Source of the DNA: an uncultured Opitutia bacterium | Lineage (GTDB): Bacteria > Verrucomicrobiota > Verrucomicrobiia > Opitutales > UBA953 | Direction: 5' to 3' | Length of the DNA: 38,350 nt | NCBI GenBank assembly: GCA_937875975.1 | Contig: CALEEU010000088.1 | Coordinates: 1-38,350 of the forward strand | Shown: positions 9,419 through 29,026 of the stretch, in pieces | Position numbering within the stretch: the first letter of the stretch is position 1 | How the letters are laid out: each line of letters begins with the position of its first letter | Program-made: the position numbers and the translations under genes | Notes under the pieces: model-generated | Database searches by the model: none | What the model was told of the DNA's origin: nothing | The model's input: only the letters and a program-made list of their open reading frames with translations

Positions 9419-10773
9419 AGCTCGAGGGGGACGCCCGGCTCGGGGTCGTGCACGCGGGTGCCGGGCATCGCGGCGGCGAGGGTTTCCTTCATCCAGGCGC
9501 GGGCGGGCGGGTCGCCGTGCGTCAGGATGATGTCCTTCGGTTCGAGGGCCTTCGCGAAATCAATCAGTTCCTCGCGGTCGGCGTGGCCGCTCAGGTGGAA
9601 GCGTTCGACCTTGGCGCGCAGCGTCGAGGTATGGTCGAGCGACTTGAATCTGAACTCTCCGCCCGGATTCATGCCGATGAGTTCGCCCCCCGGGGTCTCC
9701 GGATCGCAGTAGCCGACGAAGAACACCGCGTTCTCCTCGTGGTCGAGCATGTTGGCGGCGACGCGCCAGGCCGGAGTCTTCTCGACGAGCATGCCGCTCG
9801 AGAGGAGGTAGATGCCGCGTTCAGGCATGTTCTTGCCGGGCTGGGTGTACTTACGCGATAGCGGCAAGATACCGAGGTCGCGGAGGACTTGGCGGCTGAA
9901 CTTAACCTGTTTCGTCTTCTTGCTGGCGGCATCGAGATAGTCGCAGAGATCCATGCCGAGTCCCGAGCAGAAGATCGGCACGTCGGCGAGATTGCCCGCG
10001 TCGGCGGCTTCCTGAAGCAGCATCAGGATCTCCTGCATGCGGCCGAAGGCGAACGCCGGCAGGAGGACCGAGCCGCCTTCGTCGCAGATGGCGTTGACGG
10101 CCTTGATCAGGCGCTGCTCTTCCTTGCCGCGGTCGAAGCCCGGGACGGTCGCCGTGGCGCCGCGGGTGCATTCCATGACGAGGGTATCGACCGGCGTGCG
10201 CGGGAAGTTGGCGCCGGCGACGGTGCGCTGGGCCTTGAAATGGACGTCTCCTGTGAAGAAATGCTTCTTCTTACGGTGCTCGATGAGGCAGCCCACCGCG
10301 CCGGCGACGTGGCCCGCGAGGTGGAAACTGAGGGCGACTTCTTCGCCGCCGCGGCCGATCATGCGCGGGTTGGCGATGGGTACCGCCGCGAGGGCGTGTT
10401 CGACGCGTTCGACGTCGGTCTCGACGTAGAGAGGGTAGTCCTGGTTGCCGGTCTCCTCGCGCTGGCGCTTCATGACCTGGATGGAGTTGCTCAGCAGCCG
10501 GCGGACGAAGAGCGTGGTGGCGGCGGAGGCGTAGACGCGCGACGTCGGGTGCTGCTTCAGGAGCAAGGGCAGCGAGCCGAGGTGGTCCAGGTGGCAGTGC
10601 GTCAGGATCACGCCGTCGACGTTGCCTTGGATCTTATCGATCTGGGGCAAGGCCTTGCGGCCGTCGAGCTTGGGGTGGAGGCCGCAATCGATCACCAGCC
10701 GCAGGCCGCCGAATTCGGCGAGCATGCAGTTGGCGCCGATCTCACGGCCGGAGTTCAGGTCGGTAAGTCGCAT
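9415..10773 (-). CDS. MBL-fold beta-CASP family hydrolase (CPSF73/TTHA0252-like ribonuclease)
   Basis: MBL motifs HCHLDH, AGH and TGD. Beta-CASP motifs MECT (A), LSGHAD (B) and ILTHGD (C). 452 aa, with no RNase J C-terminal domain. Confidence 0.8.
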   Translation of the reverse strand: MRLTDLNSGREIGANCMLAEFGGLRLVIDCGLHPKLDGRKALPQIDKIQGNVDGVILTHCHLDHLGSLPLLLKQHPTSRVYASAATTLFVRRLLSNSIQVMKRQREETGNQDYPLYVETDVERVEHALAAVPIANPRMIGRGGEEVALSFHLAGHVAGAVGCLIEHRKKKHFFTGDVHFKAQRTVAGANFPRTPVDTLVMECTRGATATVPGFDRGKEEQRLIKAVNAICDEGGSVLLPAFAFGRMQEILMLLQEAADAGNLADVPIFCSGLGMDLCDYLDAASKKTKQVKFSRQVLRDLGILPLSRKYTQPGKNMPERGIYLLSSGMLVEKTPAWRVAANMLDHEENAVFFVGYCDPETPGGELIGMNPGGEFRFKSLDHTSTLRAKVERFHLSGHADREELIDFAKALEPKDIILTHGDPPARAWMKETLAAAMPGTRVHDPEPGVPLEL

Positions 10774-11204
10774 CAGGAAGGGTCGGAAGGAGGGGTCAGG
10801 GCGAAGACCGGGATACGCGTGAAGATGCGTTCGCCGGATAGGGTGGTGCCGTGGAAGGAGCCCTCGGCCGTCAGCGGTCCGCCGGCGAGGTGATAGCTGT
10901 TATAGGAGAACTTCTCGCCCGGGGGGAGGGTGGGGGTCTCGCCGACGATGCCGTCGCCCTCGACGATCTCGATGGTTCCGTCTGGGGCGCGAATGATCCA
11001 TTTCCGGCCCAGCAACTTCACCGTCTCCTGGGAGAGGTTGCTGATGGTCAGGAAGTAGACGAAGGCGTGCGGGGTTTCGGGAGGGAAGTTCACATCCCTA
11101 TGGTGCACCACCTTGTCGACGGTGACCCTGAGGCCTGGGAGTTCCTTTCCGGTGGGTTGCACGTTGGCCAAGACAAGAGGGGTTGGCCCTGTTACGGAAG
11201 CCAT
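10773..11204 (-). CDS. apaG: ApaG (DUF525) domain protein
   Basis: HAFVYFLTISNLSQETVKLLGRKWIIRAPDGTIEIVEGDGIVGETPTLPPGEKFSYNS matches the ApaG fold signature. Start placed at ATG 11204 (MASVTG..). The track ORF to 11327 would overlap the divergent gene. Confidence 0.8.
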   Translation of the reverse strand: MASVTGPTPLVLANVQPTGKELPGLRVTVDKVVHHRDVNFPPETPHAFVYFLTISNLSQETVKLLGRKWIIRAPDGTIEIVEGDGIVGETPTLPPGEKFSYNSYHLAGGPLTAEGSFHGTTLSGERIFTRIPVFALTPPSDPS

Positions 11205-11277
11205 AAATCGGCGAATCGAGCGGTATTTACCCTTCCCGTCTTGCCCCGAGGGCCTGACGACCTTTGATGGGCTTCGG

Positions 11278-13848
11278 ATGTCTACCATAGCTGAGCGTAA
11301 GCGCAACTTCGGGCGCGTTCCGGTCAAGTGGATCGTCCTGGCGTGCTATGTCCTGCTGGTCCTCGTCTCCCGCTGGGTCACTTCGGCCGACCGGGTACCC
11401 AACCCCGAGCTGGCCCAGCGGGTGGAATTCACGCCGCTCGGCAGTCCGCCGGGCCATACCGCTTTACCGGTCATCGTCATCCCCCGTCTCCCGGACGGTG
11501 GCGCCGACTTAAATCAGGCCGCCGTCGACCTCGTCAAGATACCGAAGGTCGCCGACGACGTGGGCCCGGTCTACGCTATCCGCTGGCCGACCGCCTACCA
11601 TCGTTCGCGCGCGTCGATGAGCGACGAGAGCATCGCCGACGACATGCTGCGTTCGATGGAGCCGCGACTCGGCAAGGGTCGCTTCCATCTCGTCGGCGAA
11701 GGCATGGGCGGGATGGTCGCCCTCGCGGTCGCGACGAAGTATCCGGACCGCGTGGCCTCGCTGACGCTGATTTCCGCGCCCGGCGCCCAGGAATATACGC
11801 TCCTCGGTAACGCCGTCGCCAACAAGTTCGTCTACTTCTTCCATCACATCCCGTTCTTCCTGTTCGACGTCGCCACGCCCCATTTCGGGCTGGCCGACCG
11901 CCTGCCTTATAACCGCGGTTACTCCGGCGTCTTCTTCGACAGCGACCTCTCGGGCGCCAAGGCCATGCTCCGCGCCTGGGCCGGCCCGACGCTCATCGTG
12001 CATGGCAGCTCCGACTGGATCACGCCCGTCGATGCCGCCCGCTATTCCGCCCGGCTCATGCCGCAGGCCAGGCTGATCGAGTTCGAAGGCGGACACGGCC
12101 GCGAGGTCGCGCAGGCGGCCGCCGAAGACATTCGACGCTTCATCGTCGACGTCGAGGCCGGTAAGGCCCCGCGCCGTGCTGCGCCCGTACCGGCGACCGA
12201 GCCTTATCCGCATCTGGTGGCCTCGGATGGCGCCCGCTTCTGGATCCTCGTCCTCATCATCATCCTCTGCACCTTCGTGGCGGAGGATCCGACCTGCCTG
12301 GCCGCGGGCCTCCTCGCGGCCGAAGGCATCATCGGTTTCTGGTGGGCCGCGCTGGCCTGCACGGTGGGTATCTTCATCGGCGACATGGTCCTCTACGCGC
12401 TCGGCCGCTGGCTGGGTCGCGACGCGCTGCGGCGCGCGCCGCTCAAGTGGATCGTCAAGGAGCACGAGATCGACCGCATGGCCGGCTGGTTCGGTTCGCC
12501 GCGCGGCATGCTCGTGATCGTCAGTTCACGCTTCATCCCCGCCAGCCGCGTCCCGACCTTCGTGACTGCGGGAATCCTGCGTCTCGGCCTGCCGCGCCTG
12601 GCGATGCTGCTCTTCACCGCGGCGCTCGTCTGGACGCCGGTGCTCATGCTGCTCGGCAGCACGCTCGGACCGCCTTTCATGGAGCAGTTCCCGCGCTACA
12701 AACAGTACGCTGCGTGGATCTTGCTCGGCCTCTTCGCCTTGATCTGGATCGGCACGCATTGGCTTGTCCCCGCCATGACCTGGCGCGGCCGCCGGGAGAT
12801 CGTCATGAAGGTGCGCGGTCTGCTCCAGCCTTCGCTCTGGCCCGCGTGGCTGCTCTACCTGCCGGTCCGCCTCGGCATCGTGCTCCTCTGCCTCCGTCAT
12901 CGCCGCCTGACGGCCTTCGCTTCCGCCAACCCCGCCTTCGGTCGCATCGGCGGTTTCATCGGCGACTCCAAGTCGCTCCTCCTGCGTCCGTTCCAGCGCG
13001 ATTCCCGCTGCTGCCCGACGCTCGCTCTTTCGCTCGAGGATGCGGCGGAAGAACGCGTCAAGGAAGCCGCTGCCTTCGCGGCCTGCCATGGTTTCCCGGT
13101 CGTCTTCAAGCCGGAGGTCGCCGAAGACGGCGCCGGTCTACGTTTCCTTCATACGCAGGAGCAGCTCGAGCGCCTCGTCCGCGGCGCCACGGAGGACTTC
13201 CTTCTGCAGAAGTTCATCGCCGGTTTCGAGTTCGAGGTGGTCTGGCGCCGCAACCCGGGCAAGGACGACGGCCATATCATGGCGCTCGTCCAGAAGCGCG
13301 ACGTCACCGTGCGCGGCGATGGCGAGCAGACGCTCGAAGAGCTCATCTGGCTGGACGAGGTCGCGGTCTCGCGCGGCGGACTTTTCATCCAGTGCCACGC
13401 GCGCGATCTGAACCGCGTCATCCCCGCCGGCGAGAAGGTGACGCTCAATCTTACCGGTAGCTACGGCCATGGCGCCCGCTGCCTCCACCGCCACGACCTG
13501 CTTACCGTGGAACTCGACACCGCGATGACGGCCTTCGCCAAGCGCTTCCCGGGCCTCCACTTCGCCCGCTTCGACCTCCGCGCCGTCTCGGTCGAGGACC
13601 TCAAGGCCGGTCGCTTCACCGTGACCGAGGTCGGTGGTTGCTGCCACGTCTCGAGCCTGCTGCGCGACGAGTCGCTCCGTTTCTCCCGTTCATACGCGAT
13701 CGTCTGGAGCCAGATCAAGGCCTGCCTCGAGGCCGGCGCCTACAACCTTTCGCAGAAGGTCCGCCCCGTGCCGCTCGATGAGCTGATGGCCCGCTGGAGC
13801 CAGGCCCGCGGTCGTCACGACGAGTTTGCCGTCAGCGAGGAGCTCTGA
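11278..13848 (+). CDS. Multidomain membrane protein: alpha/beta-hydrolase fold + DedA/VTT membrane domain + C-terminal ATP-grasp ligase
   Basis: Alpha/beta elbow region HLVGEGMGGMVALAVATKYPDRV, then HGSSDWITPV and FEGGHG. VTT-like FVAEDPTCLAAGLL..GDMVLYALGRWLGR..SRFIPASRVPTFVTAG. ATP-grasp VVFKPEVAEDGAGLRF, QKFIAGFEFEVVW, VRGDGEQTLEELI, NLTGSYGHGA and FARFDLR. Start placed at ATG 11278 (MSTIAERK..). Confidence 0.7.
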   Translation: MSTIAERKRNFGRVPVKWIVLACYVLLVLVSRWVTSADRVPNPELAQRVEFTPLGSPPGHTALPVIVIPRLPDGGADLNQAAVDLVKIPKVADDVGPVYAIRWPTAYHRSRASMSDESIADDMLRSMEPRLGKGRFHLVGEGMGGMVALAVATKYPDRVASLTLISAPGAQEYTLLGNAVANKFVYFFHHIPFFLFDVATPHFGLADRLPYNRGYSGVFFDSDLSGAKAMLRAWAGPTLIVHGSSDWITPVDAARYSARLMPQARLIEFEGGHGREVAQAAAEDIRRFIVDVEAGKAPRRAAPVPATEPYPHLVASDGARFWILVLIIILCTFVAEDPTCLAAGLLAAEGIIGFWWAALACTVGIFIGDMVLYALGRWLGRDALRRAPLKWIVKEHEIDRMAGWFGSPRGMLVIVSSRFIPASRVPTFVTAGILRLGLPRLAMLLFTAALVWTPVLMLLGSTLGPPFMEQFPRYKQYAAWILLGLFALIWIGTHWLVPAMTWRGRREIVMKVRGLLQPSLWPAWLLYLPVRLGIVLLCLRHRRLTAFASANPAFGRIGGFIGDSKSLLLRPFQRDSRCCPTLALSLEDAAEERVKEAAAFAACHGFPVVFKPEVAEDGAGLRFLHTQEQLERLVRGATEDFLLQKFIAGFEFEVVWRRNPGKDDGHIMALVQKRDVTVRGDGEQTLEELIWLDEVAVSRGGLFIQCHARDLNRVIPAGEKVTLNLTGSYGHGARCLHRHDLLTVELDTAMTAFAKRFPGLHFARFDLRAVSVEDLKAGRFTVTEVGGCCHVSSLLRDESLRFSRSYAIVWSQIKACLEAGAYNLSQKVRPVPLDELMARWSQARGRHDEFAVSEEL

Positions 13849-14445
13849 TCAGGCCCGCGCGGTGAACGCGTGGCAGAGGGCCGCCGCGGCCGCGTCGGAT
13901 TCATCCAAGGCCAGTTCTTCACCCAGGCGGAGCACCGTCCGAATCATCCGGCCGACCTGTTCCTTCTTGGCGCCGCCATGGCCCGCCACCGCGAGCTTGA
14001 TGCGTGTGGGGGCGTATTCGCCCACCTTGACGCCAAGGCGGGCGAGCACGCTGAGGGCGGCGCCGCGCGAGGCGCCCATCGCCTGGGCGGTGCGGAAGTT
14101 CTGGACGTAGATCGTCTCCTCGATGGAGGCGTGTGTGACCGTATGCTCGCGGACGAGTTTCTCCACCGCGTCGGCGATAAGCCCAAGGCACTCATAGGCT
14201 TCGAACTTCGGGCTTAGCTTCAGCGTGACGCTGGCGAGCAGGCGCATCGGCTCCGAGCGCGCATCGATGACGGCCAGGCCGGTGCCGCGCAGCGAAGGGT
14301 CGATCCCGAGGATGATCGCGCGACAGCCACGGCCGGCGGGAGCGACCGCAGCCTTGCGGGCACGGGGCGACTTCGCCCCCGTCGGCGTCGACGCGACGCC
14401 GCGGAGCTTATCCGTCCAGAGCGTGCGGGAGGATTTGCGGGCCAT
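13849..14445 (-). CDS. ruvC: Crossover junction endodeoxyribonuclease RuvC (with about 43-aa basic N-terminal extension)
   Basis: ILGIDPSLRGTGLAVID (first catalytic Asp), EETIYVQNFRTAQAMGASRGAA, GHGGAKKEQV and DESDAAAAALCH. There is no alternative in-frame ATG/GTG/TTG between 14445 and the RuvC core. Confidence 0.85.
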   Translation of the reverse strand: MARKSSRTLWTDKLRGVASTPTGAKSPRARKAAVAPAGRGCRAIILGIDPSLRGTGLAVIDARSEPMRLLASVTLKLSPKFEAYECLGLIADAVEKLVREHTVTHASIEETIYVQNFRTAQAMGASRGAALSVLARLGVKVGEYAPTRIKLAVAGHGGAKKEQVGRMIRTVLRLGEELALDESDAAAAALCHAFTARA

Positions 14446-14535: not shown

Positions 14536-15450
14536 ATGCGGATCGCGCTCCACCTCGCCTGCCTGACTTGGGTCGCTTCCGGCTTAGGCGCCGAGCCTGA
14601 GGTCATCCGTCGCGAGGTGCCGACCATGCCCTCGGTTGAACTGAAGAGCGCGGGGAAGCTGAACCTCAAGCTCGTCCCGGAATGTTCGGCGCTCTGGGTC
14701 AGTCCCTCGCAGCCGGGGGTGTTCTGGACGCTGGCCGATTCCGGCGCCAAAGCCGCCATCACCCCGATTCGGATGGACGGCACCATGGTGCCCGTCGGCA
14801 AGACCTACTGGGGAGCGGTCGCGCTCAAGGGCGCCACGAACGTGGACTGGGAAGCCATCACGGGGGATGCCGCCGGGAATATGGTCGTCGGCGATGTCGG
14901 CAACAACGTCTCCCGCCGCAAGGAACTAGCCTTCTACCTTTTTAAGGAGCCCGCCCCCGGCGTCAGGGAGGTGGCCGAAGTCCGCAAGGTGAGCTTCGCA
15001 TGGCCGGATCAGACTGCCTTTCCCGACCCCGAGCTCGCATATGACTGTGAGGCGATCTTCATGTTGCGCGGGAAGCTCTATCTTCTGACCAAGCATCGCC
15101 GGGATACCCTCACGGACCTCTGGCGCGCGGACATCCCGCCGGTCGGAGACCGGGCGATGCTGACGAAGCTAGCCCGCTTCGATGTCGGTGGCATGGTCAC
15201 CGACGCTTGCGTCTCACCGGATCAGAAGCGTCTCGCCATCCTGACCTATCGCAATGTCTGGGTCTTCGACGTCCCGTTGGTCGGCGAAGATTTCTTCCGC
15301 GCGCCGGCCCTCCATGCGCCGATTTCGCCGCCGATGCTTTCCTTTCAGGTCGAGGGCTGCTCTTGGGTCGACAACGGCCACCTCCTCCTCGGGTCCGAGC
15401 AGGGTGATCTCTTCCGCATCGCGCTGACGGACCTCCGCGAGGCGAAGTAG
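14536..15450 (+). CDS. Secreted hypothetical protein (possibly beta-propeller-like)
   Basis: Signal peptide MRIALHLACLTWVASGLGA. Motifs such as ECSALWVSPSQPGVFWTLADSG and DWEAITGDAAGNMVVGDVGNN recall SdiA-regulated/phytase-like propellers. The family assignment is unverified. Confidence 0.5.
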   Translation: MRIALHLACLTWVASGLGAEPEVIRREVPTMPSVELKSAGKLNLKLVPECSALWVSPSQPGVFWTLADSGAKAAITPIRMDGTMVPVGKTYWGAVALKGATNVDWEAITGDAAGNMVVGDVGNNVSRRKELAFYLFKEPAPGVREVAEVRKVSFAWPDQTAFPDPELAYDCEAIFMLRGKLYLLTKHRRDTLTDLWRADIPPVGDRAMLTKLARFDVGGMVTDACVSPDQKRLAILTYRNVWVFDVPLVGEDFFRAPALHAPISPPMLSFQVEGCSWVDNGHLLLGSEQGDLFRIALTDLREAK

Positions 15451-17989: not shown

Positions 17990-18718
17990 TCAGCGGCGGC
18001 CGAGCGCCGGCAGCACGAGGTCCGTCTCGATGTCGAGCCGGATCACGAGCAGCTTCGTCTGACGCGTGATGCGGTCGGTCCCTGGCCGTGCGGCGAAGCC
18101 GAGGGATTCAAAGTCACCTTGCTTTTCCGTCAGGCGGGCGAGCGCGGCTTCGGCCTCGTCGCCGGTCCGATAGGCGAAGGCGATCGTCGCGACAAGGAAG
18201 GCGCCGCCGTCGCTTTCGCCGACCGCGATGGTCGCTGATTCGGCCTGGGCGCCGGCCTCGATCAACGCGCGCCCGAGCCAGCGGCGGCGGGCGGCGGTCT
18301 CGAGCAAGGCCTGCGCGGGCGCGGCGTGGACGAGCAGGTAGCCATGCGGGACGCCGCTGAGCTGCACGCGCGCGAGACCAGGGATGACCTTGCCGCCGTC
18401 GGTGATCTCAGGCGGGTTCTCGCTGAGTTCCGCGGCTTGTCCCGGGATGAAGCCCACGGTCGCCCGCTCGGCTTTGTCCAAGGTAGCTCGGGCGAGCCCG
18501 GCGCGTAAGGCCTCGCGCTGTTCCAGCGGGGCCAGTTCGGCGAGCGCCCGAAGAACGGCGGCGGAAGTCCGGAGTCCTTGGGCTTCGCGGGGCAGGATCA
18601 GCGCGACCTCGCGGCTGCGCGGGTCGATGCGCAGGCGCAGGTCGCCAGGATGCGTCCAGAGCCACGCTACGCTGCACGCCATGGCCAGGAACGCGAGCAG
18701 CAGGAGCGGGCGACGCAT
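17990..18718 (-). CDS. Hypothetical exported/membrane-anchored protein
   Basis: N-terminal hydrophobic signal/anchor MRRPLLLLAFLAMACSVAWLW. No recognisable motifs. It lies 6 nt downstream of the preceding same-strand gene. Confidence 0.45.
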   Translation of the reverse strand: MRRPLLLLAFLAMACSVAWLWTHPGDLRLRIDPRSREVALILPREAQGLRTSAAVLRALAELAPLEQREALRAGLARATLDKAERATVGFIPGQAAELSENPPEITDGGKVIPGLARVQLSGVPHGYLLVHAAPAQALLETAARRRWLGRALIEAGAQAESATIAVGESDGGAFLVATIAFAYRTGDEAEAALARLTEKQGDFESLGFAARPGTDRITRQTKLLVIRLDIETDLVLPALGRR

Positions 18719-18724
18719 GCGCGC

Positions 18725-19726
18725 TTACTTGGCGCCCGGAGCGGCCGCGCTCTTCCGGGCTTTCTCGACCACCCGTCCGATCGCCTGCGCGAGCTTGTCC
18801 GCCGGGTAATCAAGGCCGAGGGTCGCCTGCTTGCCCTCGCCGCCGATGCGGATCTTCTGCACGAGTTCGACGAGCGTCCCCATTTCTTCCTTCTCCTCGG
18901 GCGATTTCCCGTCGTCGTTCGAGAGTCCCATCATCGAGAGCGCTTGGAAGCCTTGGAGCTGCTTGCGCATCGTCGAAGCCTTCTCGACGCTCACGAAGTT
19001 GGCGGCGACCGCGAGCTGCAGGTCGGTGGCGTTTTCGCCGAGCACCAGCGAAAGGTCTTCCACGCCGGCTTCTTGCTTCGTGTTAGGCATCTTCGCGGCA
19101 TCGGCGTAGAGAAAGAGCCAGCCCTGCGGGGCGGCGGCGAACTTCGCGGATACCACGGTGGGCAGTTGCGCGGCCTTCTCGCCGCGATCGGCCGCGGCGA
19201 CGGCGCGTTCGAGGAACTCCGCGCTGACGACGACGAGCAGGCTTTCCGAATGGGCGACGACGTAGGCGTCCTTGGCGTCATCCTTCGGCTTCTCCCCGGA
19301 AAGTTTCTCGATGAAGGCGCCGGCTTCCCAAGCCTGATGCTGGCCGACGGTCTTCGACGGGAGGGAGTTGCTCTGGCCGAACGCGTTGATGCGTGCCGGC
19401 ACGAACTTGCCCCGGATGAGCACGACGCCGGAGGCGCTCTTCTCGGCGACCTTGCCGTCGGGGCCCGGGTAAATCGCAACGACGAGCTCATGCAGGTCGT
19501 TTTCAGAATCCACCCCGAGCTGTTCGCGCAGCCTGCGGGAAGCCTCGAGGTCCTTCGCCTTCAGGTCGGCGAGCTTCTCGAGGGCCTGTCCGACCTTGGT
19601 CCTGCGGAAGGTCTTGAGGTCGAAGCCGACAATGGCGACGGAACCGGCGGGCAGGCCTTCGGTGTTCAACGCGGCCTGGGCCGAGTTGAAGAAGAGGGCC
19701 AGGATCAGGGCAAGCAGGGGTCGCAT
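18725..19726 (-). CDS. Hypothetical secreted protein
   Basis: Clear signal peptide MRPLLALILALFFNSAQA-AL. Composition is balanced, unlike the shadow ORFs. No recognisable catalytic motif. Confidence 0.55.
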   Translation of the reverse strand: MRPLLALILALFFNSAQAALNTEGLPAGSVAIVGFDLKTFRRTKVGQALEKLADLKAKDLEASRRLREQLGVDSENDLHELVVAIYPGPDGKVAEKSASGVVLIRGKFVPARINAFGQSNSLPSKTVGQHQAWEAGAFIEKLSGEKPKDDAKDAYVVAHSESLLVVVSAEFLERAVAAADRGEKAAQLPTVVSAKFAAAPQGWLFLYADAAKMPNTKQEAGVEDLSLVLGENATDLQLAVAANFVSVEKASTMRKQLQGFQALSMMGLSNDDGKSPEEKEEMGTLVELVQKIRIGGEGKQATLGLDYPADKLAQAIGRVVEKARKSAAAPGAK

Positions 19727-23148: not shown

Positions 23149-24096
23149 ATGCCGAAGCCGCCCCGAGTCCGCCGAGAGACGGTGCCTCCTGACCTCCGGG
23201 AGTCGGTGGACGCCTTCCTGGCCCACCTCTCGCTTGAGCGTGGCGCCGCCAAACTGACGACGGAGGCCTACGAGTCCGACCTGCTCCGCTTCGCCGCCCA
23301 CTGCGGCCGGGCCGGCCGGACGAACTGGACGGAGGTCTCGCTCGCCGACGTGGATTCCTGGACGCGCGCGCTCGACCGCAAGGGGCACGCCGCCGCCTCG
23401 ATGGCCCGACGGCTCTCGGCCGTCCGTTCCTTTTCGGCCCACCTGGTCCGCAGCGGCCTGCGTCGCGATGATTTCACCGAGCTCGCCCACGGCCCGAAGC
23501 TTCGCCGCAAGCTGCCCGGCATGATCAGCGCCGAGGAAGCCGCCAAGGTCGTCTCCGCGCCCGACACCCGCACGCCGCAGGGCCTACGCGATCGCGCGAT
23601 GCTCGAGATGATGTACGGTTCCGGTCTGCGTATCTCCGAACTTTGTAGCCTGGAGATCCAGGCCGTCGACGCCGACTCCGCGCTCGTGCGTGTCACCGGC
23701 AAGGGCTCCAAGGATCGCGTCGTGCCCGTCGGCGAGACCGCGTTGGTCGCCTTACAGGCCTATCTCAAGGCTGGCCGGCCCAAGCTCGTGCGTCCGAAGA
23801 CCGGCAGCGCGCTCTTCCTGAGCGCCCGCGGCGTCGCCATCTCCCGCAAGACCTTCTGGCTCGGCGTGAAACAGGCGGCCCAGCGTGCCGGGGTCTCCGT
23901 GCCCGTGAAGCCGCACCTCCTGCGCCATGCCTTCGCGACGCATCTGCTCGAAGGCGGCGCGGACCTGCGTTCGATTCAGGAGATGCTCGGCCATGCCGAC
24001 ATCGCCACGACGCAGATCTACACGTCGGTCGACCGCACGGCCCTCTCGGATGCGCACCGTCGTCACCACCCTCGCGGGCGGGGCAAGGGGCGTTAA
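23149..24096 (+). CDS. xerD: Tyrosine site-specific recombinase, XerD-like
   Basis: FLAHLSLERGAAKLTTEAYESDL, RDRAMLEMMYGSGLRISEL, GKGSKDRVVPVG, HLLRHAFATHLLEGGADLRSIQEMLGHADIATTQIYT. 315 aa. Confidence 0.85.
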   Translation: MPKPPRVRRETVPPDLRESVDAFLAHLSLERGAAKLTTEAYESDLLRFAAHCGRAGRTNWTEVSLADVDSWTRALDRKGHAAASMARRLSAVRSFSAHLVRSGLRRDDFTELAHGPKLRRKLPGMISAEEAAKVVSAPDTRTPQGLRDRAMLEMMYGSGLRISELCSLEIQAVDADSALVRVTGKGSKDRVVPVGETALVALQAYLKAGRPKLVRPKTGSALFLSARGVAISRKTFWLGVKQAAQRAGVSVPVKPHLLRHAFATHLLEGGADLRSIQEMLGHADIATTQIYTSVDRTALSDAHRRHHPRGRGKGR

Positions 24097-25619
24097 CGTC
24101 CGAACAGGACGAAGAGTCCGCCGATGATCGAAGCCGCGGTGAGCGCGCCGATCAGGAAGCGAGTACCAAACGGGATCTCGAGCGGGGCCAGTTCTTCGTC
24201 GGCGTCGGTCGGCCGGACCACCGCCTCGCGGAGGATCGAGAAATAGTAGTGGATGCTGATTGCGACGCCGAGAAGGGCGGCGCCGAGGATCCACCAAAGC
24301 TTGGCGGATACGAGCAGCATGAGTACGAGCAGCTTGGCGATGAAGCCCACGGAAGGCGGTACGCCGGCGAGGGAGCCGATGCCGAAACCGAGGGCGCTGG
24401 CGAGGAGCGGTGAACGACGGAGCAGGCCGCGGAGCGCGAGCTGCGGGCGGCGATGGTCTTCAATCGCCGGTAGCGAGACGAGCGCTTGGGCGGTGAGGAA
24501 CGTGCCGATGACGTAAGCCAGGAGGTAGATGACGATGACCTGTTCGACATCGTAGCCAAGGGCGTTGGCGCCCGGGAGGACGAGCGCGGCCGTGACGGCG
24601 GCAAGGATGAAACCGGCGTGCGAGACGCCCGAAAGCGAGAGCGTGCGCTTCACGTCAGTCGTGGCAAGGGCGCCGAGATTCCCGAAGAGGAGGGTCAGCA
24701 CGGCGGTGACGCCAAGGAGCGGAGCGAGCTTCACCGCGATCGGGGCGAAGGGTCCGGTCGCCAGCAGCACTAAGGTGAACGCGCCGGCGGCCTTGGAGGC
24801 CGTGCCGAGGAAGGCGGTCGTCGGGGTCGGGGCGCCTTGGTAGACGTCCGGAATCCAGGTGTGGAACGGGAAGGCGCCGAGCTTGAAGGCGACGCCGCCG
24901 AGAATCAGGGCGATGCCGGTGAGCGTCAGGGGCGAAACCGTATTCGCGACGGACTGGGCGGCGAGGGCCTTGCCGATCTGGGTGAAGTTGAGCGAGTCCG
25001 CGACACCGACGGAACCGAGCGCGCCGTAGACGAGTACGATGCCCATCAGGAGCAAAGCGGAACTAAGGCCGCCCGCGACGAGGTATTTCACGCCGGCTTC
25101 AAGCGAGGCTTCGCTGCGGCGCAGGTAGCCGACGAGCACGTAGAGGCCGACGGCGGCCGTCTCGAGCGAGAGGAAGAACGGGACGAAGTGGTTCGACTGC
25201 GCGAGGAGCATGAACGCCGCCGTGACGACCAAGAGCACATGGTGGTAGTCGGCGACCGCGGCGTCGCGTTCGCGTAGGAAGCCTTCGGCGAGGAAACTCG
25301 TCAGCAAGGCCGATAGCAGGAAGACCATGCGCACGCCGTCGGTGGGCAGGTTCTGACGGAGCAGGCCGGCGAACGAAGCGACGTCGGTCGGCTGAACCCA
25401 GGGCCCGTTGGTCAAAGCCATGATCGCGACGAGCACTAGGCCGACGCGAGCGGTGATCGGGATGAGCGAGCGGAGTGCCTTGGGGAGGAACATCGCTTGC
25501 AGGAGGCAGATGAGCGAGAGGCCGGCGACGGCGATCTCGGGTAGGATGGATAGCCAGTCAGCCGGGCGCGGGGCCAGGACCTTGAAGACTGGATCGATAT
25601 CGGCGAGGAAAGGAATCAT
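24093..25619 (-). CDS. nuoN: NADH-quinone oxidoreductase subunit N
   Basis: Polytopic antiporter-like subunit with HTWIPDVYQGAPTPTTAFL. It is last in the J-K-L-M-N order. 508 aa. Confidence 0.9.
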   Translation of the reverse strand: MIPFLADIDPVFKVLAPRPADWLSILPEIAVAGLSLICLLQAMFLPKALRSLIPITARVGLVLVAIMALTNGPWVQPTDVASFAGLLRQNLPTDGVRMVFLLSALLTSFLAEGFLRERDAAVADYHHVLLVVTAAFMLLAQSNHFVPFFLSLETAAVGLYVLVGYLRRSEASLEAGVKYLVAGGLSSALLLMGIVLVYGALGSVGVADSLNFTQIGKALAAQSVANTVSPLTLTGIALILGGVAFKLGAFPFHTWIPDVYQGAPTPTTAFLGTASKAAGAFTLVLLATGPFAPIAVKLAPLLGVTAVLTLLFGNLGALATTDVKRTLSLSGVSHAGFILAAVTAALVLPGANALGYDVEQVIVIYLLAYVIGTFLTAQALVSLPAIEDHRRPQLALRGLLRRSPLLASALGFGIGSLAGVPPSVGFIAKLLVLMLLVSAKLWWILGAALLGVAISIHYYFSILREAVVRPTDADEELAPLEIPFGTRFLIGALTAASIIGGLFVLFGR

Positions 25620-25630
25620 CGGACGGAAAA

Positions 25631-27178
25631 TTAGCGCTGGGTAGGAACGGCCGGGCCAGCCTTGACGGGTGCCTTGGCGTTATGCTGCGAGAAGGTGGTG
25701 ATACCAGCGGCGACGGGATTGACGGACTTCGTGATGAGCGAAGGCACGAAGCCAATCGTCAGCGAAGCGCCGAGCAGCACGAAGGCGGCGAAGCGCTCGG
25801 CCCAGCCGAGGTCGCCGAAGGGCGCGGAGGCGAAGCGCTTCTCGAGCGCCTCGGAGGCCGGACCGAAGAAGGTGGAGGCCACGGCGCGGAGGGCGTACAC
25901 GGCGGAGAGGATGACCGTCGAGGCGACGAGGGCCTGCAGCCAAAGCGGCTGGGCGCGGAGGGCGAGGAAGACGCCGACTTCACCCCAGAAGTTTCCGAAG
26001 CCCGGCAGGCCGATGGAGGCCATCGTCGCGGCGATGAAGAGCGCGGCAAGGATCGGCGTGCGCGTGGCGAGGCCGCCCAGTTCGTCGAGGCGATAGGTGC
26101 CGGCGCGGGCGCGGACGGCGTTGGCGAGCAGGAAGAGCGCGGCGCAAGAGAGGCCGTGTGCGACCATGAGGAAAGCGGCGGCATCGAGGCCGTCGGCCTG
26201 GCCGGACACGCCGCAGACCCAGATGCCGAGGAAGATCGGACCCATGTGGGCGACGGAACTCCAGGAGAGCAACTGCTTGAGGTCGCGCTGCGCGAGGCAG
26301 ATCAGGCCGACGAGGACGACGTTGGCGACGGCGAACCAGAGGAACCAAGTGCCGAGCGAGCCGCCGGTGATGTCGAGGCTGCTGAGGCCGAGGAGGATGA
26401 TGCCGTAGAGGCCGAACTTCTTGAGGGCGCCAGCGTGTAGCATCGAGACCGGGGTCGGCGCGGCGGAGTAGCCAGGCGCGGCCCAGGAGTGGAACGGGAA
26501 GAGCGAGGCGAGCGTGCCGAGGCCGAAGAGCACCAGCGCACCAGTGGCGGCGGGGATGGACTTCGCGTTCTGGAGGCCTTGGGCGACGTTCTCGAAGGTC
26601 GCGACGCCGTACTCGACACCGGAGGCGTCGATGGCGATCAGGATGCCCGCGAGGGAGGCCATGGCGCCAGCGGTGAGGTAGATCGCCATCTGCATGGCGG
26701 CCGGCCGACGGCCTTCGCCACCCCAGAAGAGCGTGAGGATGAACGTGGGGATGAGCGCGAACTCGTGGAAGAAGTAGAAACCGACGAGGTGATTGGTGCC
26801 GAACACGGCGAGCGTGCCACCAAGCATGAACAGGATGAGGCCCAGGTAGGTGTTCCGTCCTTCCACTTCCTGCGTGAGGGCCTTGATGCCCGCGGCGAGG
26901 CCGACGAGCGAGGTCATCGCGAGGAGCGGCGCCCCGAGGCCATTGAGCGCGAAACCGAAGCCCCAGAACCCTTCGGACTGGAACTGCTGCGGCGCGGTGC
27001 TCGGATCGCTCCAGAGGACGAGCAACCAGGGGCCGAGCACGGCCGGGATGGCGAAGCCGCCGAAGGCGAAGCCCGAGGCGAAGCTGCGAGGGAGGTCGCG
27101 TCCGGCGAGCAAGATCAGGCCGACGAGAATCGGGGCCGTGATGGCGAGCGCGAGGAGCGTGGCAGGAAAAGTATCCAT
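25631..27178 (-). CDS. nuoM: NADH-quinone oxidoreductase subunit M
   Basis: Antiporter-like subunit with FPFHSWAPGYSAAPTPVSMLHAGALKKFGLYG. Its position is between nuoL and nuoN. 515 aa. Confidence 0.9.
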   Translation of the reverse strand: MDTFPATLLALAITAPILVGLILLAGRDLPRSFASGFAFGGFAIPAVLGPWLLVLWSDPSTAPQQFQSEGFWGFGFALNGLGAPLLAMTSLVGLAAGIKALTQEVEGRNTYLGLILFMLGGTLAVFGTNHLVGFYFFHEFALIPTFILTLFWGGEGRRPAAMQMAIYLTAGAMASLAGILIAIDASGVEYGVATFENVAQGLQNAKSIPAATGALVLFGLGTLASLFPFHSWAAPGYSAAPTPVSMLHAGALKKFGLYGIILLGLSSLDITGGSLGTWFLWFAVANVVLVGLICLAQRDLKQLLSWSSVAHMGPIFLGIWVCGVSGQADGLDAAAFLMVAHGLSCAALFLLANAVRARAGTYRLDELGGLATRTPILAALFIAATMASIGLPGFGNFWGEVGVFLALRAQPLWLQALVASTVILSAVYALRAVASTFFGPASEALEKRFASAPFGDLGWAERFAAFVLLGASLTIGFVPSLITKSVNPVAAGITTFSQHNAKAPVKAGPAVPTQR

Positions 27179-27181
27179 GAA

Positions 27182-29026
27182 TTAGCGGGCGATGAGGAAC
27201 CAGGCCAGGAAGAGAGTACCCACTACGATCCAAAGCGCGTAGGCACGCGTCTGGCCGCGGTGGAAGGAACGGCCAGTGAGGTAGCCCAGTACGGCGGGGA
27301 CGCCGCCACCGATCCAGCGCACGGCGACACCGTTGATGATGAGGAGGTCGAGGAACGCGACGAACTCGGAGGCGCGACGCTGCACGGAGTCGACGTACCA
27401 GCGGTAAAGGCCGTCCATCCAGCGGTGCTCAAGGAGGTGATACGTGCGAGGCGAGACGACTTGGAGGGCGTCGGCGCCACGGACGACGCCGTAGAACTTG
27501 AGCGCACCGAAGAAGCCGACGACGAGTGAGAAGAGGCCGACGATGGTCGAGGGGGCGTTCAGGTGGAAGGCGATGGCGTCGAGGGCGGGCTTGATCGGCT
27601 GCAGCGAACCAGCCGGCAGCAGGGTCGAGGCAAGGAAACCGCCAGCGACGGAGTAGACGAGGCCGAGCACGACGAGCGGCAGGGTCATCGTCCAAGGAGA
27701 CTCATGGGCGTGGGCGGCTTCTTCGGAGTTCGCTTCGCCGAGGAAGACGAGGCGGATCATGCGTCCGCTGTAGAGGCAGGTCGCGAGCGCGGCGAGGGCC
27801 AGGAAAGCGAAGATCACGAAGCGTCCGTCATGGTAGGCGGCCTCGATGATGGCGTCCTTGGAATACCAGCCCGCAAGGAAGGGCACGGCGCAATTTGAGA
27901 GCGTCGCGGCGATGAACGTCACGGCGGTGAGCGGCATCTTCTTCAGCAGGCCGCCCATCTTGAGCATGTCCTGTTCGTGGTGGCAGCCGTGGATGACCGA
28001 ACCGGCCCCGAGGAATAGCGTGGCTTTGAAGAACGCGTGCATCGCCATATGCATGAGCGCGAGCGCGGGGTGACCGAGGCCGATGGCGCAGCCCATGATG
28101 CCGAGGTGCGCGAGCGTCGAGTAGGCGAGGGACTTCTTGATGTCGGTCTGCGCGAGCGCGCAGAGGCCGGCCAGCGCCGCCATGCCAGCACCGGAGACCG
28201 CGATGAACTGCAGGACATCAGGGGCGAGCAGGAAGCTCACGCGGGCCATGAAGTAGACGCCGGCGGCCACCATCGTCGCGGCGTGGATGAGCGCCGAGAC
28301 CGGCGTCGGGCCGGCCATCGCGTCCGTGAGCCAGACGTGGAGCGGGAACTGGGCGGACTTGCCGAGGAAGCCGCACATGAGCAGCGCGCCGACGGCGACG
28401 GGGATGGTCTTGGCAGCAGCGGCGTGGTCCTTGAGCGCGACGAAGTCGAGCGTACCGTAGAGCGAGAGGCACATCGCGATGCCGAGGATGAAACCGAGGT
28501 CGCCGATTCGGTTGACGATGAACGCCTTCTTCGAGGCGGCGGCGGCGTAATCCTTGTCGAAGTAGTGCGCGATCAGCATGTACGAGCTGAAGCCCACGAG
28601 TTCCCAGAAGATGAACGTCATGAGCAGGTTGTCGGCGACGACGATGCCCAGGATGGAGAACATGAAGATCGAGAGACCGGCGAAGAAACGGCCGCGGGCC
28701 GTGTCTTCCTTCATGTAACCGACGGAGAAGAGGTGGATCCACGCGGCGACGAAAGACACCACGAAGAGCATCAGGCGCGCGTTGGCATCGATGAGGTAGC
28801 CGAAGCCGAGGCTGATGCCGCCAAACTTCGCGAGCTCGACGTGCCAGGTGACGTCGACGCCCTTGCTGAGCAGGTTGAGCGAGAGGCCGGCGATGGCGAA
28901 GGCGGTGCCGGTCGAGAGCCAGGCGGCGAGTCCGCCGGCGCGGCGCAGGAACAGCGCGGAGAGCGCGGCGGCTCCCAGCGGCAGGAACAGGATCCAGTGG
29001 ACCAGGGACGAAAGGTCGGAAGGCAT
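27182..29026 (-). CDS. nuoL: NADH-quinone oxidoreductase subunit L
   Basis: FIFWELVGFSSYMLIAHY, GKSAQFPLHVWLTDAMAGPTPVSALIHAATMVAAGVY and a long C-terminal extension (lateral helix). 614 aa. Confidence 0.92.
   Translation of the reverse strand: MPSDLSSLVHWILFLPLGAAALSALFLRRAGGLAAWLSTGTAFAIAGLSLNLLSKGVDVTWHVELAKFGGISLGFGYLIDANARLMLFVVSFVAAWIHLFSVGYMKEDTARGRFFAGLSIFMFSILGIVVADNLLMTFIFWELVGFSSYMLIAHYFDKDYAAAASKKAFIVNRIGDLGFILGIAMCLSLYGTLDFVALKDHAAAAKTIPVAVGALLMCGFLGKSAQFPLHVWLTDAMAGPTPVSALIHAATMVAAGVYFMARVSFLLAPDVLQFIAVSGAGMAALAGLCALAQTDIKKSLAYSTLAHLGIMGCAIGLGHPALALMHMAMHAFFKATLFLGAGSVIHGCHHEQDMLKMGGLLKKMPLTAVTFIAATLSNCAVPFLAGWYSKDAIIEAAYHDGRFVIFAFLALAALATCLYSGRMIRLVFLGEANSEEAAHAHESPWTMTLPLVVLGLVYSVAGGFLASTLLPAGSLQPIKPALDAIAFHLNAPSTIVGLFSLVVGFFGALKFYGVVRGADALQVVSPRTYHLLEHRWMDGLYRWYVDSVQRRASEFVAFLDLLIINGVAVRWIGGGVPAVLGYLTGRSFHRGQTRAYALWIVVGTLFLAWFLIAR

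Follow-up and report, generated by a model that had tools for sequence, protein, structure and literature searches.

A DedA membrane domain joined to a tethered ATP-grasp module: an orphan protein of an Opitutales bacterium and the apparently undescribed family to which it belongs

The uncultured Opitutia bacterium represented by assembly GCA_937875975.1 carries, on contig CALEEU010000088.1, a gene whose 856-residue product combines an α/β-hydrolase fold, a DedA-type membrane domain and an ATP-grasp domain in one chain. The gene lies at positions 11278-13848 (forward strand) of the 38,350 nucleotides that were analysed, hereafter the window, and it is real and single, coding for a membrane protein predicted to span two compartments and built of domains of recognisable identity. 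We propose, with confidence evenly divided for and against, that the protein is a derived orphan of a large, undescribed family whose canonical members would couple a ligase to a flippase, with or without a hydrolase, and that the window's copy itself acts chiefly as a DedA-type translocator.

Gene and domain composition

The reading frame runs uninterrupted on the forward strand from the ATG at 11278 to the TGA at 13846-13848, as the list of open reading frames and the sequence both show, and bears out the single 856-residue frame described in an earlier account made from the letters alone (the sequence-only reading). The complete coding sequence (11278-13848) is supported by full-length homologues and by synteny in 80 genomes, and it is monocistronic, with a divergent apaG (10773-11327, reverse strand) on one side and a convergent ruvC (13849-14445, reverse strand) on the other. 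A longer form beginning at the TTG at 11113, offered by the program that listed the frames, was ruled out, and the ATG at 11278 was taken as the start, because the homologues all begin at the MST(I/L)A(E/D)RKRN position. A protein database search returned 193 proteins, and the full-length ones among those listed (about 800-915 residues, down to 51% identity) have the same architecture. A synteny scan of one genome per species yielded 94 loci, of which 80 were kept for comparison. Nearly all of these are labelled Opitutales or Verrucomicrobiota and come mainly from freshwater metagenome-assembled genomes; the few other taxon labels are probably the result of mis-binning or mislabelling, as on contigs L010, L022, L031, L041, L066 and L080, which show clear Opitutales synteny under names such as Klebsiella, Flavobacterium, Akkermansia muciniphila and Polynucleobacter. 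Where contigs are long enough, the conserved gene order is rpoN, amidase, beta-CASP, apaG, the 856-residue gene, ruvC, orf304, tkt.

The four parts named in the sequence-only reading, an N-terminal transmembrane helix, an α/β-hydrolase fold, a DedA/VTT core and an ATP-grasp domain, all proved real by Pfam, by profile comparison with PDB sequences and by Foldseek, and the positions and motifs given there were correct (VRGDGEQTLEELI at residues 678-690, NLTGSYGHGA at 724-733, FARFDLR at 762-768). Three points had escaped it: glycine (Gly142) stands at the nucleophile position, the Mg-binding Asn is replaced by Gly786, and the helix at residues 520-538 is probably monotopic. The α/β-hydrolase-fold domain (residues 41-295, 11398-12162), recognised by Pfam, PDB alignments and Foldseek, matches Abhydrolase_1 with 61.7 bits (cut-off 25.8; E=1.1e-16), and structural searches with the N-terminal domain returned esterases at E about 1e-9. 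The DedA/VTT core (residues 319-500, 12232-12777) matches VTT_dom (PF09335) over residues 345-461 with 58.1 bits (cut-off 33.9; E=1.6e-15). No PDB sequence matched this part at E≤1, so there was no solved DedA structure for comparison.

The C-terminal module (residues 539-856, 12892-13845) is an ATP-grasp of the cyanophycin-synthetase G-domain/GshF type by profiles, Foldseek and alignment-column counts. Its Pfam match to CPSase_L_D2, over residues 589-639, is just above cut-off (21.4 versus 19.8 bits), and the profile search that had been suggested as a check upon the VTT and ATP-grasp assignments thus placed both above the Pfam threshold. A profile of the C-terminal 316 residues retrieved only ATP-grasp enzymes from PDB sequences, best among them cyanophycin synthetase 2 (7ta5, 4e-6; also 8fxh). 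AlphaFold2 modelled the full-length protein with a mean pLDDT of 77 and the C-terminal module with a pLDDT of 83 and a pTM of 0.83, and Foldseek matched the C-terminal model to CphA1 (2e-11, TM score 0.54-0.59), GshF and CphA2, followed by D-Ala-D-Ala ligases (Ddl).

The curated NCBIfam matches fall well below their cut-offs. The membrane part comes closest to UptA, the undecaprenyl-phosphate transporter (NF052604/NF052605; E 3.2e-15), with 56.7 bits against 250 and 41.7 against 300 for the two equivalogs; the cyanophycin synthetase models TIGR02068 and NF010623 reach 21-22 bits against 850-877, in the G-domain region of the C-terminus only; and OlsI (NF052614) reaches 24.4 bits against 385 (E 1.8e-5). 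No MprF family was among the Pfam matches of the protein at E≤1.

A large family with a constant core

The architecture, far from rare, is one of several forms in a family that numbers thousands of proteins. The family was defined by a W-P-x-W-x-x-Y-x-P anchor helix followed by an N-P..G-G..G-(E/D)-x-K motif and a CphA/GshF-type ATP-grasp, with a DedA domain fused or encoded adjacently. The window's protein has each of these elements, with LWPAWLLYLP as its anchor and N551-P552..G558-G559..G562-D563-x-K565 as its motif, the ATP-grasp being fused to DedA. In an exhaustive HMMER search, the C-terminal profile retrieved 2,584 representative clusters (50% identity) at E≤1e-3, of which 543 reached E≤1e-30. 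When architectures were assigned to the top 150 clusters with hidden Markov models built locally from the window's family, 60 had α/β, DedA and ATP-grasp domains, 56 DedA and ATP-grasp, 38 ATP-grasp only and 7 α/β and ATP-grasp; some of the ATP-grasp-only members are fragments, and the complete ones bear the anchor helix. In a word-indexed search, a profile of canonical members scored E≤1e-10 against at least 6,473 proteins; Acidobacteriota supplied the best of these, and the names attached ("hypothetical", "VTT domain-containing" or "RimK-like") are all uninformative. The canonical profile aligned with CphA2, CphA1 and GshAB through the E-x-N motif (1.8e-11 to 3e-8). We infer from these architectures that the constant core of the family is a DedA lipid-translocating domain with a membrane-tethered ATP-grasp, to which about half of the members add a periplasmic Ser-Asp-His hydrolase.

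The ATP-grasp part of the wider family matched no Pfam or NCBIfam model at cut-off, and the literature searched held nothing relevant on DedA with ATP-grasp, ornithine lipid with ATP-grasp, olsB with DedA, or TANGO2 with ornithine lipid. A survey of DedA fusions lists rhodanese, PAP2 and pyridine-nucleotide-disulfide oxidoreductase as the only partners (PMC10127716). The statement of the sequence-only reading that no characterised protein is known with this architecture therefore holds for the Pfam and NCBIfam families and for the papers covered by our search. The parts are of known kinds; their combination, the anchored ATP-grasp subfamily and its link to ols operons appear to be undescribed.

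A stand-alone anchored ATP-grasp (L082, 338-5163) has as neighbours a type III polyketide synthase, a methyltransferase, a UbiA prenyltransferase and a flavin-dependent oxidoreductase on the opposite strand, a neighbourhood that could represent a different lipid context for the stand-alone branch.

Association with aminolipid operons

The gene context of relatives ties the family to aminolipid biosynthesis. In two Acidobacteriota genomes (L086/L087 and L088), a DedA-ATP-grasp gene directly follows, and overlaps, an Acetyltransf_5 gene and a PlsC-type acyltransferase gene; in L085 the family gene precedes an Acetyltransf_5 gene; in L090 a three-domain, Ser-containing member comes after Acetyltransf_5, a DinB_2-like gene and a TANGO2-like gene; and L092 has the order PlsC-like gene, 176-residue gene, TANGO2, three-domain gene. 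The best NCBIfam matches of these acyltransferase neighbours are the L-ornithine N-alpha-acyltransferase OlsB (1e-40 to 1e-46) and the lyso-ornithine-lipid O-acyltransferase OlsA (1e-36 to 1e-39), both with full-length coverage and below the equivalog cut-offs.

To these were added 80 metagenomic loci, collected by means of six closer sequences and scanned with local hidden Markov models, of which 20 extend at least 4.5 kb upstream of the family gene. At least one of olsB, olsA, the DinB_2-like gene and the TANGO2-like gene lies upstream on the same strand in 18 of these 20 informative loci, and olsB or olsA lies within 5 kb in 12. The usual order is olsB, olsA, dinB-like, TANGO2-like and then the family gene, which stands last whether it has two domains or three. 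In split forms (L107, 6533-9011; L151, 6512-9005) the order is dinB-like, DedA, TANGO2-like, ATP-grasp, with DedA and ATP-grasp as separate genes of one operon. The occurrence of fused and split forms in one conserved operon argues that DedA and ATP-grasp work together, and with the aminolipid enzymes.

The most constant partners are the DinB_2-like protein (about 175 residues) and the TANGO2-family protein (about 245 residues), whose genes are found in olsB-olsA operons of many phyla (L088, 6671-8004; L090, 6598-7859; L092, 395-1632; and L093-L172). Neither has an NCBIfam match, and the literature searched holds no aminolipid link for them. The absence of an OlsA-like gene from L090 raised the idea that the α/β domain replaces OlsA in the manner of OlsI; it was rejected as a general rule because L092, L103, L105, L113, L116, L158 and L163 have both, and also because the α/β domain is predicted to be periplasmic.

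The window's copy stands apart from this context. No member of the OlsB, OlsA, DinB_2-like or TANGO2-like families was found when the window and 81 syntenic verrucomicrobial loci were scanned (1.04 Mb altogether), and the other genes of the 38 kb window are housekeeping ones.

Catalytic residues kept and lost

Sixty-one diverse three-domain relatives were aligned with the window's protein at the catalytic positions of both enzymes. In the hydrolase, 41 have Ser at the nucleophile position and 20 have Gly, the Asp is found in 55 and the His in 51; in the ATP-grasp, K611, Q644, E651 and K673 are invariant, and Asn786 is present in 53, E784 in 57, R764 in 59 and D766 in 60. We conclude that the ancestor possessed both a full serine-hydrolase triad and a full ATP-grasp site, and that the window's clade is derived.

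In the window's protein the nucleophile elbow reads G-E-G-M-G-G, and alignment to solved hydrolases sets G142 (codon GGC, 11701-11703) against the catalytic Ser both of lipase ORF17 and of esterase EstX; all 75 Opitutales sequences compared have Gly here. Asp246 (12013-12015) and His273 (12094-12096) are present, the His being replaced by Arg in many members of the clade. The combination expected of an active serine hydrolase, a Ser, Cys or Asp in a G-x-S-x-G elbow with an acid and a His, is not found in this copy; its hydrolase has lost the nucleophile (Ser to Gly142) and is predicted to be non-catalytic. The lid motifs of the α/β domain (G169, E172, G177, N182, P201, F203, G204, D223) are conserved despite the absent Ser.

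In the ATP-grasp, the window's copy has N551-P552, K565, K611 (13108-13110), Q644, E651 and K673, together with R764 (13567-13569), D766 (13573-13575) and E784 (13627-13629); only the Asn of E-x-N is missing, its position being occupied by Gly786 (13633-13635) here and by Glu in one subclade. As judged from the alignment, then, the Mg-binding Asn is the one loss from the domain's set of ATP- and acyl-phosphate-binding residues. The loop that follows (residues 786-797, 13633-13665), canonically N-G-V-T-S-E-A-T-H-I-Y-D, has become in the Opitutales clade a new and strictly conserved G-G-C-C-H-V-S-S-x-x-R-D, which looks like remodelling rather than decay. The C-terminal domain probably still binds ATP; the chances that it still ligates appear about even. 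The enzymatic activities assumed for the window's protein in the sequence-only reading may accordingly be reduced, altered or lost in this copy, which has neither the Ser nucleophile nor the E-x-N Asn and stands outside an ols operon. It is possibly a partly inactivated, and in any case atypical, member of the family.

Three further lineages are degenerate. P0150, P0151 and P0159 all have Gly at the α/β nucleophile position; P0150, with the elbow GFGMGG, has E-I-E in place of E-x-N (Glu for Asn786) and keeps R764 and E784, and P0151 and P0159 each have Val for R764 and Gly for E784. P0150 lies at the same apaG locus as the window's gene, and P0151 and P0159 are orphans among housekeeping genes. 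With the window's lineage these make four that are both orphan and degenerate, so that loss of the operon and loss of catalytic residues go together there.

Invariance extends to the membrane domain, in which E336, D337, D369, R418 and R424 are unchanged in all 61 relatives.

Predicted membrane topology

The chain begins with a tail predicted to be cytoplasmic (residues 1-18, with five Lys or Arg) and transmembrane helix 1 (residues 19-37), together 11278-11388, placed by hydropathy, charge counts and an AlphaFold2 helix at 16-39. The α/β domain is followed by a Pro/Ala-rich linker (residues 296-318, 12163-12231) of low conservation, delimited by AlphaFold2 secondary structure and low pLDDT. 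The DedA core, whose layout draws on VTT_dom, the sub-cut-off UptA match, the invariant residues, cysteine-accessibility mapping of YqjA and charge counts, opens with re-entrant hairpin 1 (319-348), bearing E336-D337-P338 at its tip (codons of E336-D337, 12283-12288). There follow a transmembrane helix (355-376) carrying D369 (12382-12384), a loop (377-417) with eight Lys or Arg, re-entrant hairpin 2 (408-433 in the AlphaFold2 model) with R418 (12529-12531) and R424 (12547-12549) at its tip, and two further transmembrane helices (438-460 and 479-499). Between this core and the ATP-grasp lie an amphipathic, Lys/Arg-rich helix (501-519) and the hydrophobic W-P-x-W-x-x-Y-x-P helix (520-538), together 12778-12891, defined by family conservation and flanking Lys and Arg.

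Cysteine-accessibility work on E. coli YqjA locates both ends of its first hairpin in the periplasm and its Lys/Arg-rich loop in the cytoplasm (bioRxiv 10.1101/2021.10.18.464800). Mapped onto the 856-residue protein, these results would put the α/β domain in the periplasm and the ATP-grasp in the cytoplasm, and make helix 520-538 monotopic. The distribution of charge runs the same way, with five Lys or Arg in the N-tail, eight in loop 377-417, and five and four around helix 520-538, and with none and two in the loops predicted to be periplasmic. In a set of 56 three-domain proteins, a median of three Lys or Arg and no Asp or Glu comes before the N-terminal helix, and the α/β domain contains 0.16 Cys per 100 residues, with none at all in 40 of the 56, against 0.88 in the ATP-grasp; the α/β domain of the window's protein has no Cys. 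Helix 520-538 is followed by RHRR and has Lys/Arg clusters on both sides, and W521, P522, Y527 and P529 are near-invariant family-wide, stand-alone ATP-grasp forms included. It is probably a monotopic anchor holding the ATP-grasp at the cytoplasmic face, not a spanning helix. An alternative model with 319-334 as a spanning helix and 520-538 as a sixth transmembrane helix puts the Lys/Arg-rich loops outside, and was replaced by the hairpin model consistent with YqjA.

A proposed mechanism and its alternatives

CphA (through its G domain) and GshF phosphorylate the free α-carboxylate of an N-acylated amino acid and then add an amine. Since these nearest solved relatives activate that group, and an ornithine-type aminolipid presents it at the membrane surface, we propose carboxylate ligation as the chemistry of the family. 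In canonical members, OlsB and OlsA would make the aminolipid, an N-acyl amino acid with a free α-carboxylate, at the cytoplasmic leaflet; the anchored ATP-grasp would activate this carboxylate as an acyl-phosphate and ligate to it an amine or amino acid; the DedA core would flip the product to the periplasmic leaflet; and the serine hydrolase, where present, would trim or remodel the lipid in the periplasm. In the Opitutales lineage of the window the gene would have left the operon, and the main role of its product would be DedA-type translocation of a membrane lipid, either anionic or zwitterionic. A bolder version, which we hold only tentatively and rather doubt, is that the family is a dedicated aminolipid machine comprising an ATP-grasp head-group ligase, the first dedicated aminolipid flippase (DedA) and often a periplasmic hydrolase, and that the window's copy has been repurposed for a different lipid.

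Several points weigh against the proposal of a ligase-flippase family with a translocator as its derived member. The window's copy has neither Asn786 nor the operon context on which the case for aminolipids is built, and in biotin carboxylase mutation of the equivalent Asn reportedly lowers activity by one to two orders of magnitude. The degeneration of P0150, P0151 and P0159 suggests a trend toward a non-catalytic domain. The best curated match of the DedA part is an undecaprenyl-phosphate transporter. The Opitutales are at most putative aminolipid producers, the 2026 review noting for this order only OlsH homologues (PMC12971839). Finally, the orientation of the domains and the monotopic placement of helix 520-538 come from sequence arguments, and the substrate class and every reaction step of the scheme are what we infer.

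The strongest alternative, possible yet in our estimate unlikely, is that the protein is a DedA scramblase or transporter whose ATP-grasp-derived domain senses or binds nucleotide or head group for regulation or gating, with the α/β domain serving in binding or docking. Such a pseudoenzyme would account for Gly142 at the nucleophile position in all 75 Opitutales sequences and for Gly or Glu in place of Asn786, for the Gly nucleophile of P0150, P0151 and P0159 and the further loss of R764 and E784 from the last two, and for the position of all four degenerate lineages as orphans outside ols operons; the persistence of the ATP-binding residues K611, Q644, E651 and K673 and of lid motifs around an absent Ser also speaks for it. 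It is opposed by the retention of R764, D766 and E784, which leaves seven of eight canonical catalytic or ATP residues in place, by a loop after E-x-N that has been remodelled to a strictly conserved GGCCHVSS..RD instead of decaying, by conservation of the ATP-grasp domain to the same degree as housekeeping neighbours, and by the one subclade with Glu at position 786, which could still bind Mg. For the window's lineage, a fully non-catalytic, ATP-sensing DedA is plausible.

We consider it improbable that the protein is a recycling flippase of the UptA/COG0586 type for undecaprenyl phosphate or another polyprenyl phosphate, fitted with accessory domains, which corresponds to the lipid-carrier idea of the sequence-only reading. 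UptA is the top NCBIfam match of the DedA part, and arginines six apart at the tip of hairpin 2 with an acidic tip on hairpin 1 are hallmarks of undecaprenyl-phosphate flippases (PMC10127716). However, the 56.7 bits of that match lie far under the equivalog cut-off of 250; the acidic pattern consists of adjacent E336-D337 with D369 in the next helix, and not of the E39/D51 spacing; the relatives are linked to olsB and olsA, and not to peptidoglycan, O-antigen or teichoic-acid genes; and the reported fusion partners of COG0586 are PAP2 and rhodanese. The ols operons of relatives now favour aminolipids as the substrate class, in place of the polyprenyl-phosphate carriers and muropeptides suggested before.

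That the frame is a mis-assembly, a frameshift fusion of separate genes or a chance opening in GC-rich DNA deserves virtually no credence: the 64-68% GC hereabouts does give many spurious long frames on all strands, but an artefact, raised in the sequence-only reading as a possible refutation, is excluded by the full-length architecture of the 193 database entries and by one syntenic locus in 80 genomes from independent assemblies, each domain has significant profile and fold matches, and the domain boundaries match those of fused and split relatives.

Relation to known systems

MprF is an aminoacyl-phosphatidylglycerol synthase fused to a flippase, and separately encoded periplasmic hydrolases of its product, PA0919 and AcvB, exist. 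The likeness to MprF drawn in the sequence-only reading, a synthase plus a flippase, survives as a matter of logic, through the olsB-olsA context and the split DedA and ATP-grasp genes, and not as homology. In both systems a cytoplasmic head-group enzyme is fused to a membrane translocating domain, to which the canonical three-domain relatives add a periplasmic hydrolase. There is no sequence or fold relationship, however; the translocator is a DedA core in place of the flippase domain of MprF, the reaction would be acyl-phosphate ligation by an ATP-grasp and not transfer from aminoacyl-tRNA, and the genetic context is olsBA and not phospholipid genes.

With the DedA proteins of COG0586 (UptA, YqjA, YghB) the 856-residue protein shares a VTT domain above threshold, two re-entrant hairpins, the acidic tip of hairpin 1 and the R-x5-R of hairpin 2. 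It differs in its fusion to ATP-grasp and α/β domains, partners unreported for DedA (PMC10127716), in its adjacent E336-D337 and additional invariant D369, and in the aminolipid genes that accompany its relatives. The G domain of CphA1/CphA2 and GshF are the best profile and structural matches of the ATP-grasp and have in common with it an inserted "v.GDG..T..eLi" subdomain. Unlike these enzymes, the protein has neither the N and Mur-ligase-like M domains of CphA nor a GshA domain; it has instead the W-P-x-W-x-x-Y-x-P membrane tether and the N-P..GG..G(E/D).K motif, and, in the window's copy, Gly for the Mg-binding Asn. OlsI, the α/β-hydrolase-fold O-acyltransferase in the OlsH/OlsI route to ornithine lipid (PMC12493201), resembles the α/β domain in fold, in its association with aminolipid genes and in a weak NCBIfam match; the domain described here differs in being predicted to be periplasmic and in having no nucleophile, and in relatives it co-occurs with OlsA and does not replace it.

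The reaction expected of an olsBA-linked, anchored ATP-grasp has a biochemical precedent. Transfer of taurine to the carboxyl of ornithine lipid is ATP-dependent and yields cerilipin, a reaction to which no gene has been assigned (Tahara 1976-78, summarised in PMC12971839); the ATP-dependent amide bond to the ornithine-lipid carboxyl is the likeness, and the difference is that the taurine transferase is an activity with no gene attached. Ser-Gly and Orn-Ser-Gly peptide head groups also exist, and about half of all sequenced bacteria are predicted to have ornithine lipids and related aminolipids, with enrichment in the outer membrane (PMC12971839). The words "flippase", "transport", "DedA" and "ATP-grasp" are absent from the text of that 2026 review of ornithine lipids, and neither it nor the other literature searched mentions a protein that flips ornithine lipids across the inner membrane.

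The family is a concrete candidate for both aminolipid flipping and ATP-dependent amide addition to the head group. Were this assignment true, it would supply a long-missing type of gene for ATP-dependent taurine or peptide addition, provide an MprF-like synthase-flippase system for phosphorus-free lipids, and give DedA proteins a defined class of substrate in addition to phospholipids and undecaprenyl phosphate. In evolutionary terms, the window's copy is of interest as a scaffold kept under strong constraint despite the loss of an operon and two catalytic residues, its periplasm-facing half having been swapped between close relatives.

Exchange of the 5' half

Comparison with the close relatives L001 and L003 revealed that a block covering transmembrane helix 1, the α/β domain and the DedA domain (11280-12850) has a different history from the rest of the gene. 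The flanks and the DNA beyond about 12865 match these loci at 85-97% identity; from about 11280 to about 12850 the figure falls to 36-60% for most of the block, with 70-73% in some stretches of the DedA core. Identities of the single domains are likewise discordant: in one set of relatives the ATP-grasp shares 88-95% identity with that of the window's copy, the α/β domain about 34% and the DedA domain about 60%, and a second set has the reverse, with about 50% in α/β, about 78% in DedA and 43-57% in ATP-grasp. It follows that the 5' half was swapped at this locus as a single block, by recombination or allelic replacement, with its 3' breakpoint near residues 508-530. Two types of N-terminal half were seen, GEGMGG/FVYFFHH and GQG[YL]GG/VYGFHG, whose phylogeny is discordant with that of the ATP-grasp half.

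Neighbouring genes

The immediate neighbours of the gene are tightly packed. The ApaG-domain frame at 10773-11327 (reverse strand), as listed from a TTG, overlaps the start of the 856-residue gene by 50 nucleotides; the ApaG domain occupies only residues 84-157 of this frame, and the true start of apaG is probably further downstream. On the other side (13846-13851) not one base separates the gene from the convergent ruvC: its own stop ends at 13848, the ruvC stop starts at 13849, and any terminator must therefore lie within coding sequence.

Elsewhere in the window, three open reading frames (14536-15450, forward; 17990-18718 and 18725-19726, both reverse) are conserved in the syntenic Opitutales loci at 53-95% identity and have no Pfam match. 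Two genes for tyrosine recombinases of the phage-integrase family lie at 80-862 and 23149-24096 (both forward), the latter with the N-terminal SAM-like domain typical of XerC/XerD. Three consecutive Proton_antipo_M genes of the NuoL/M/N or Mrp type occupy 24093-29026 (reverse), and the region from 24 to 30 kb shows marked positive GC and AT skew.

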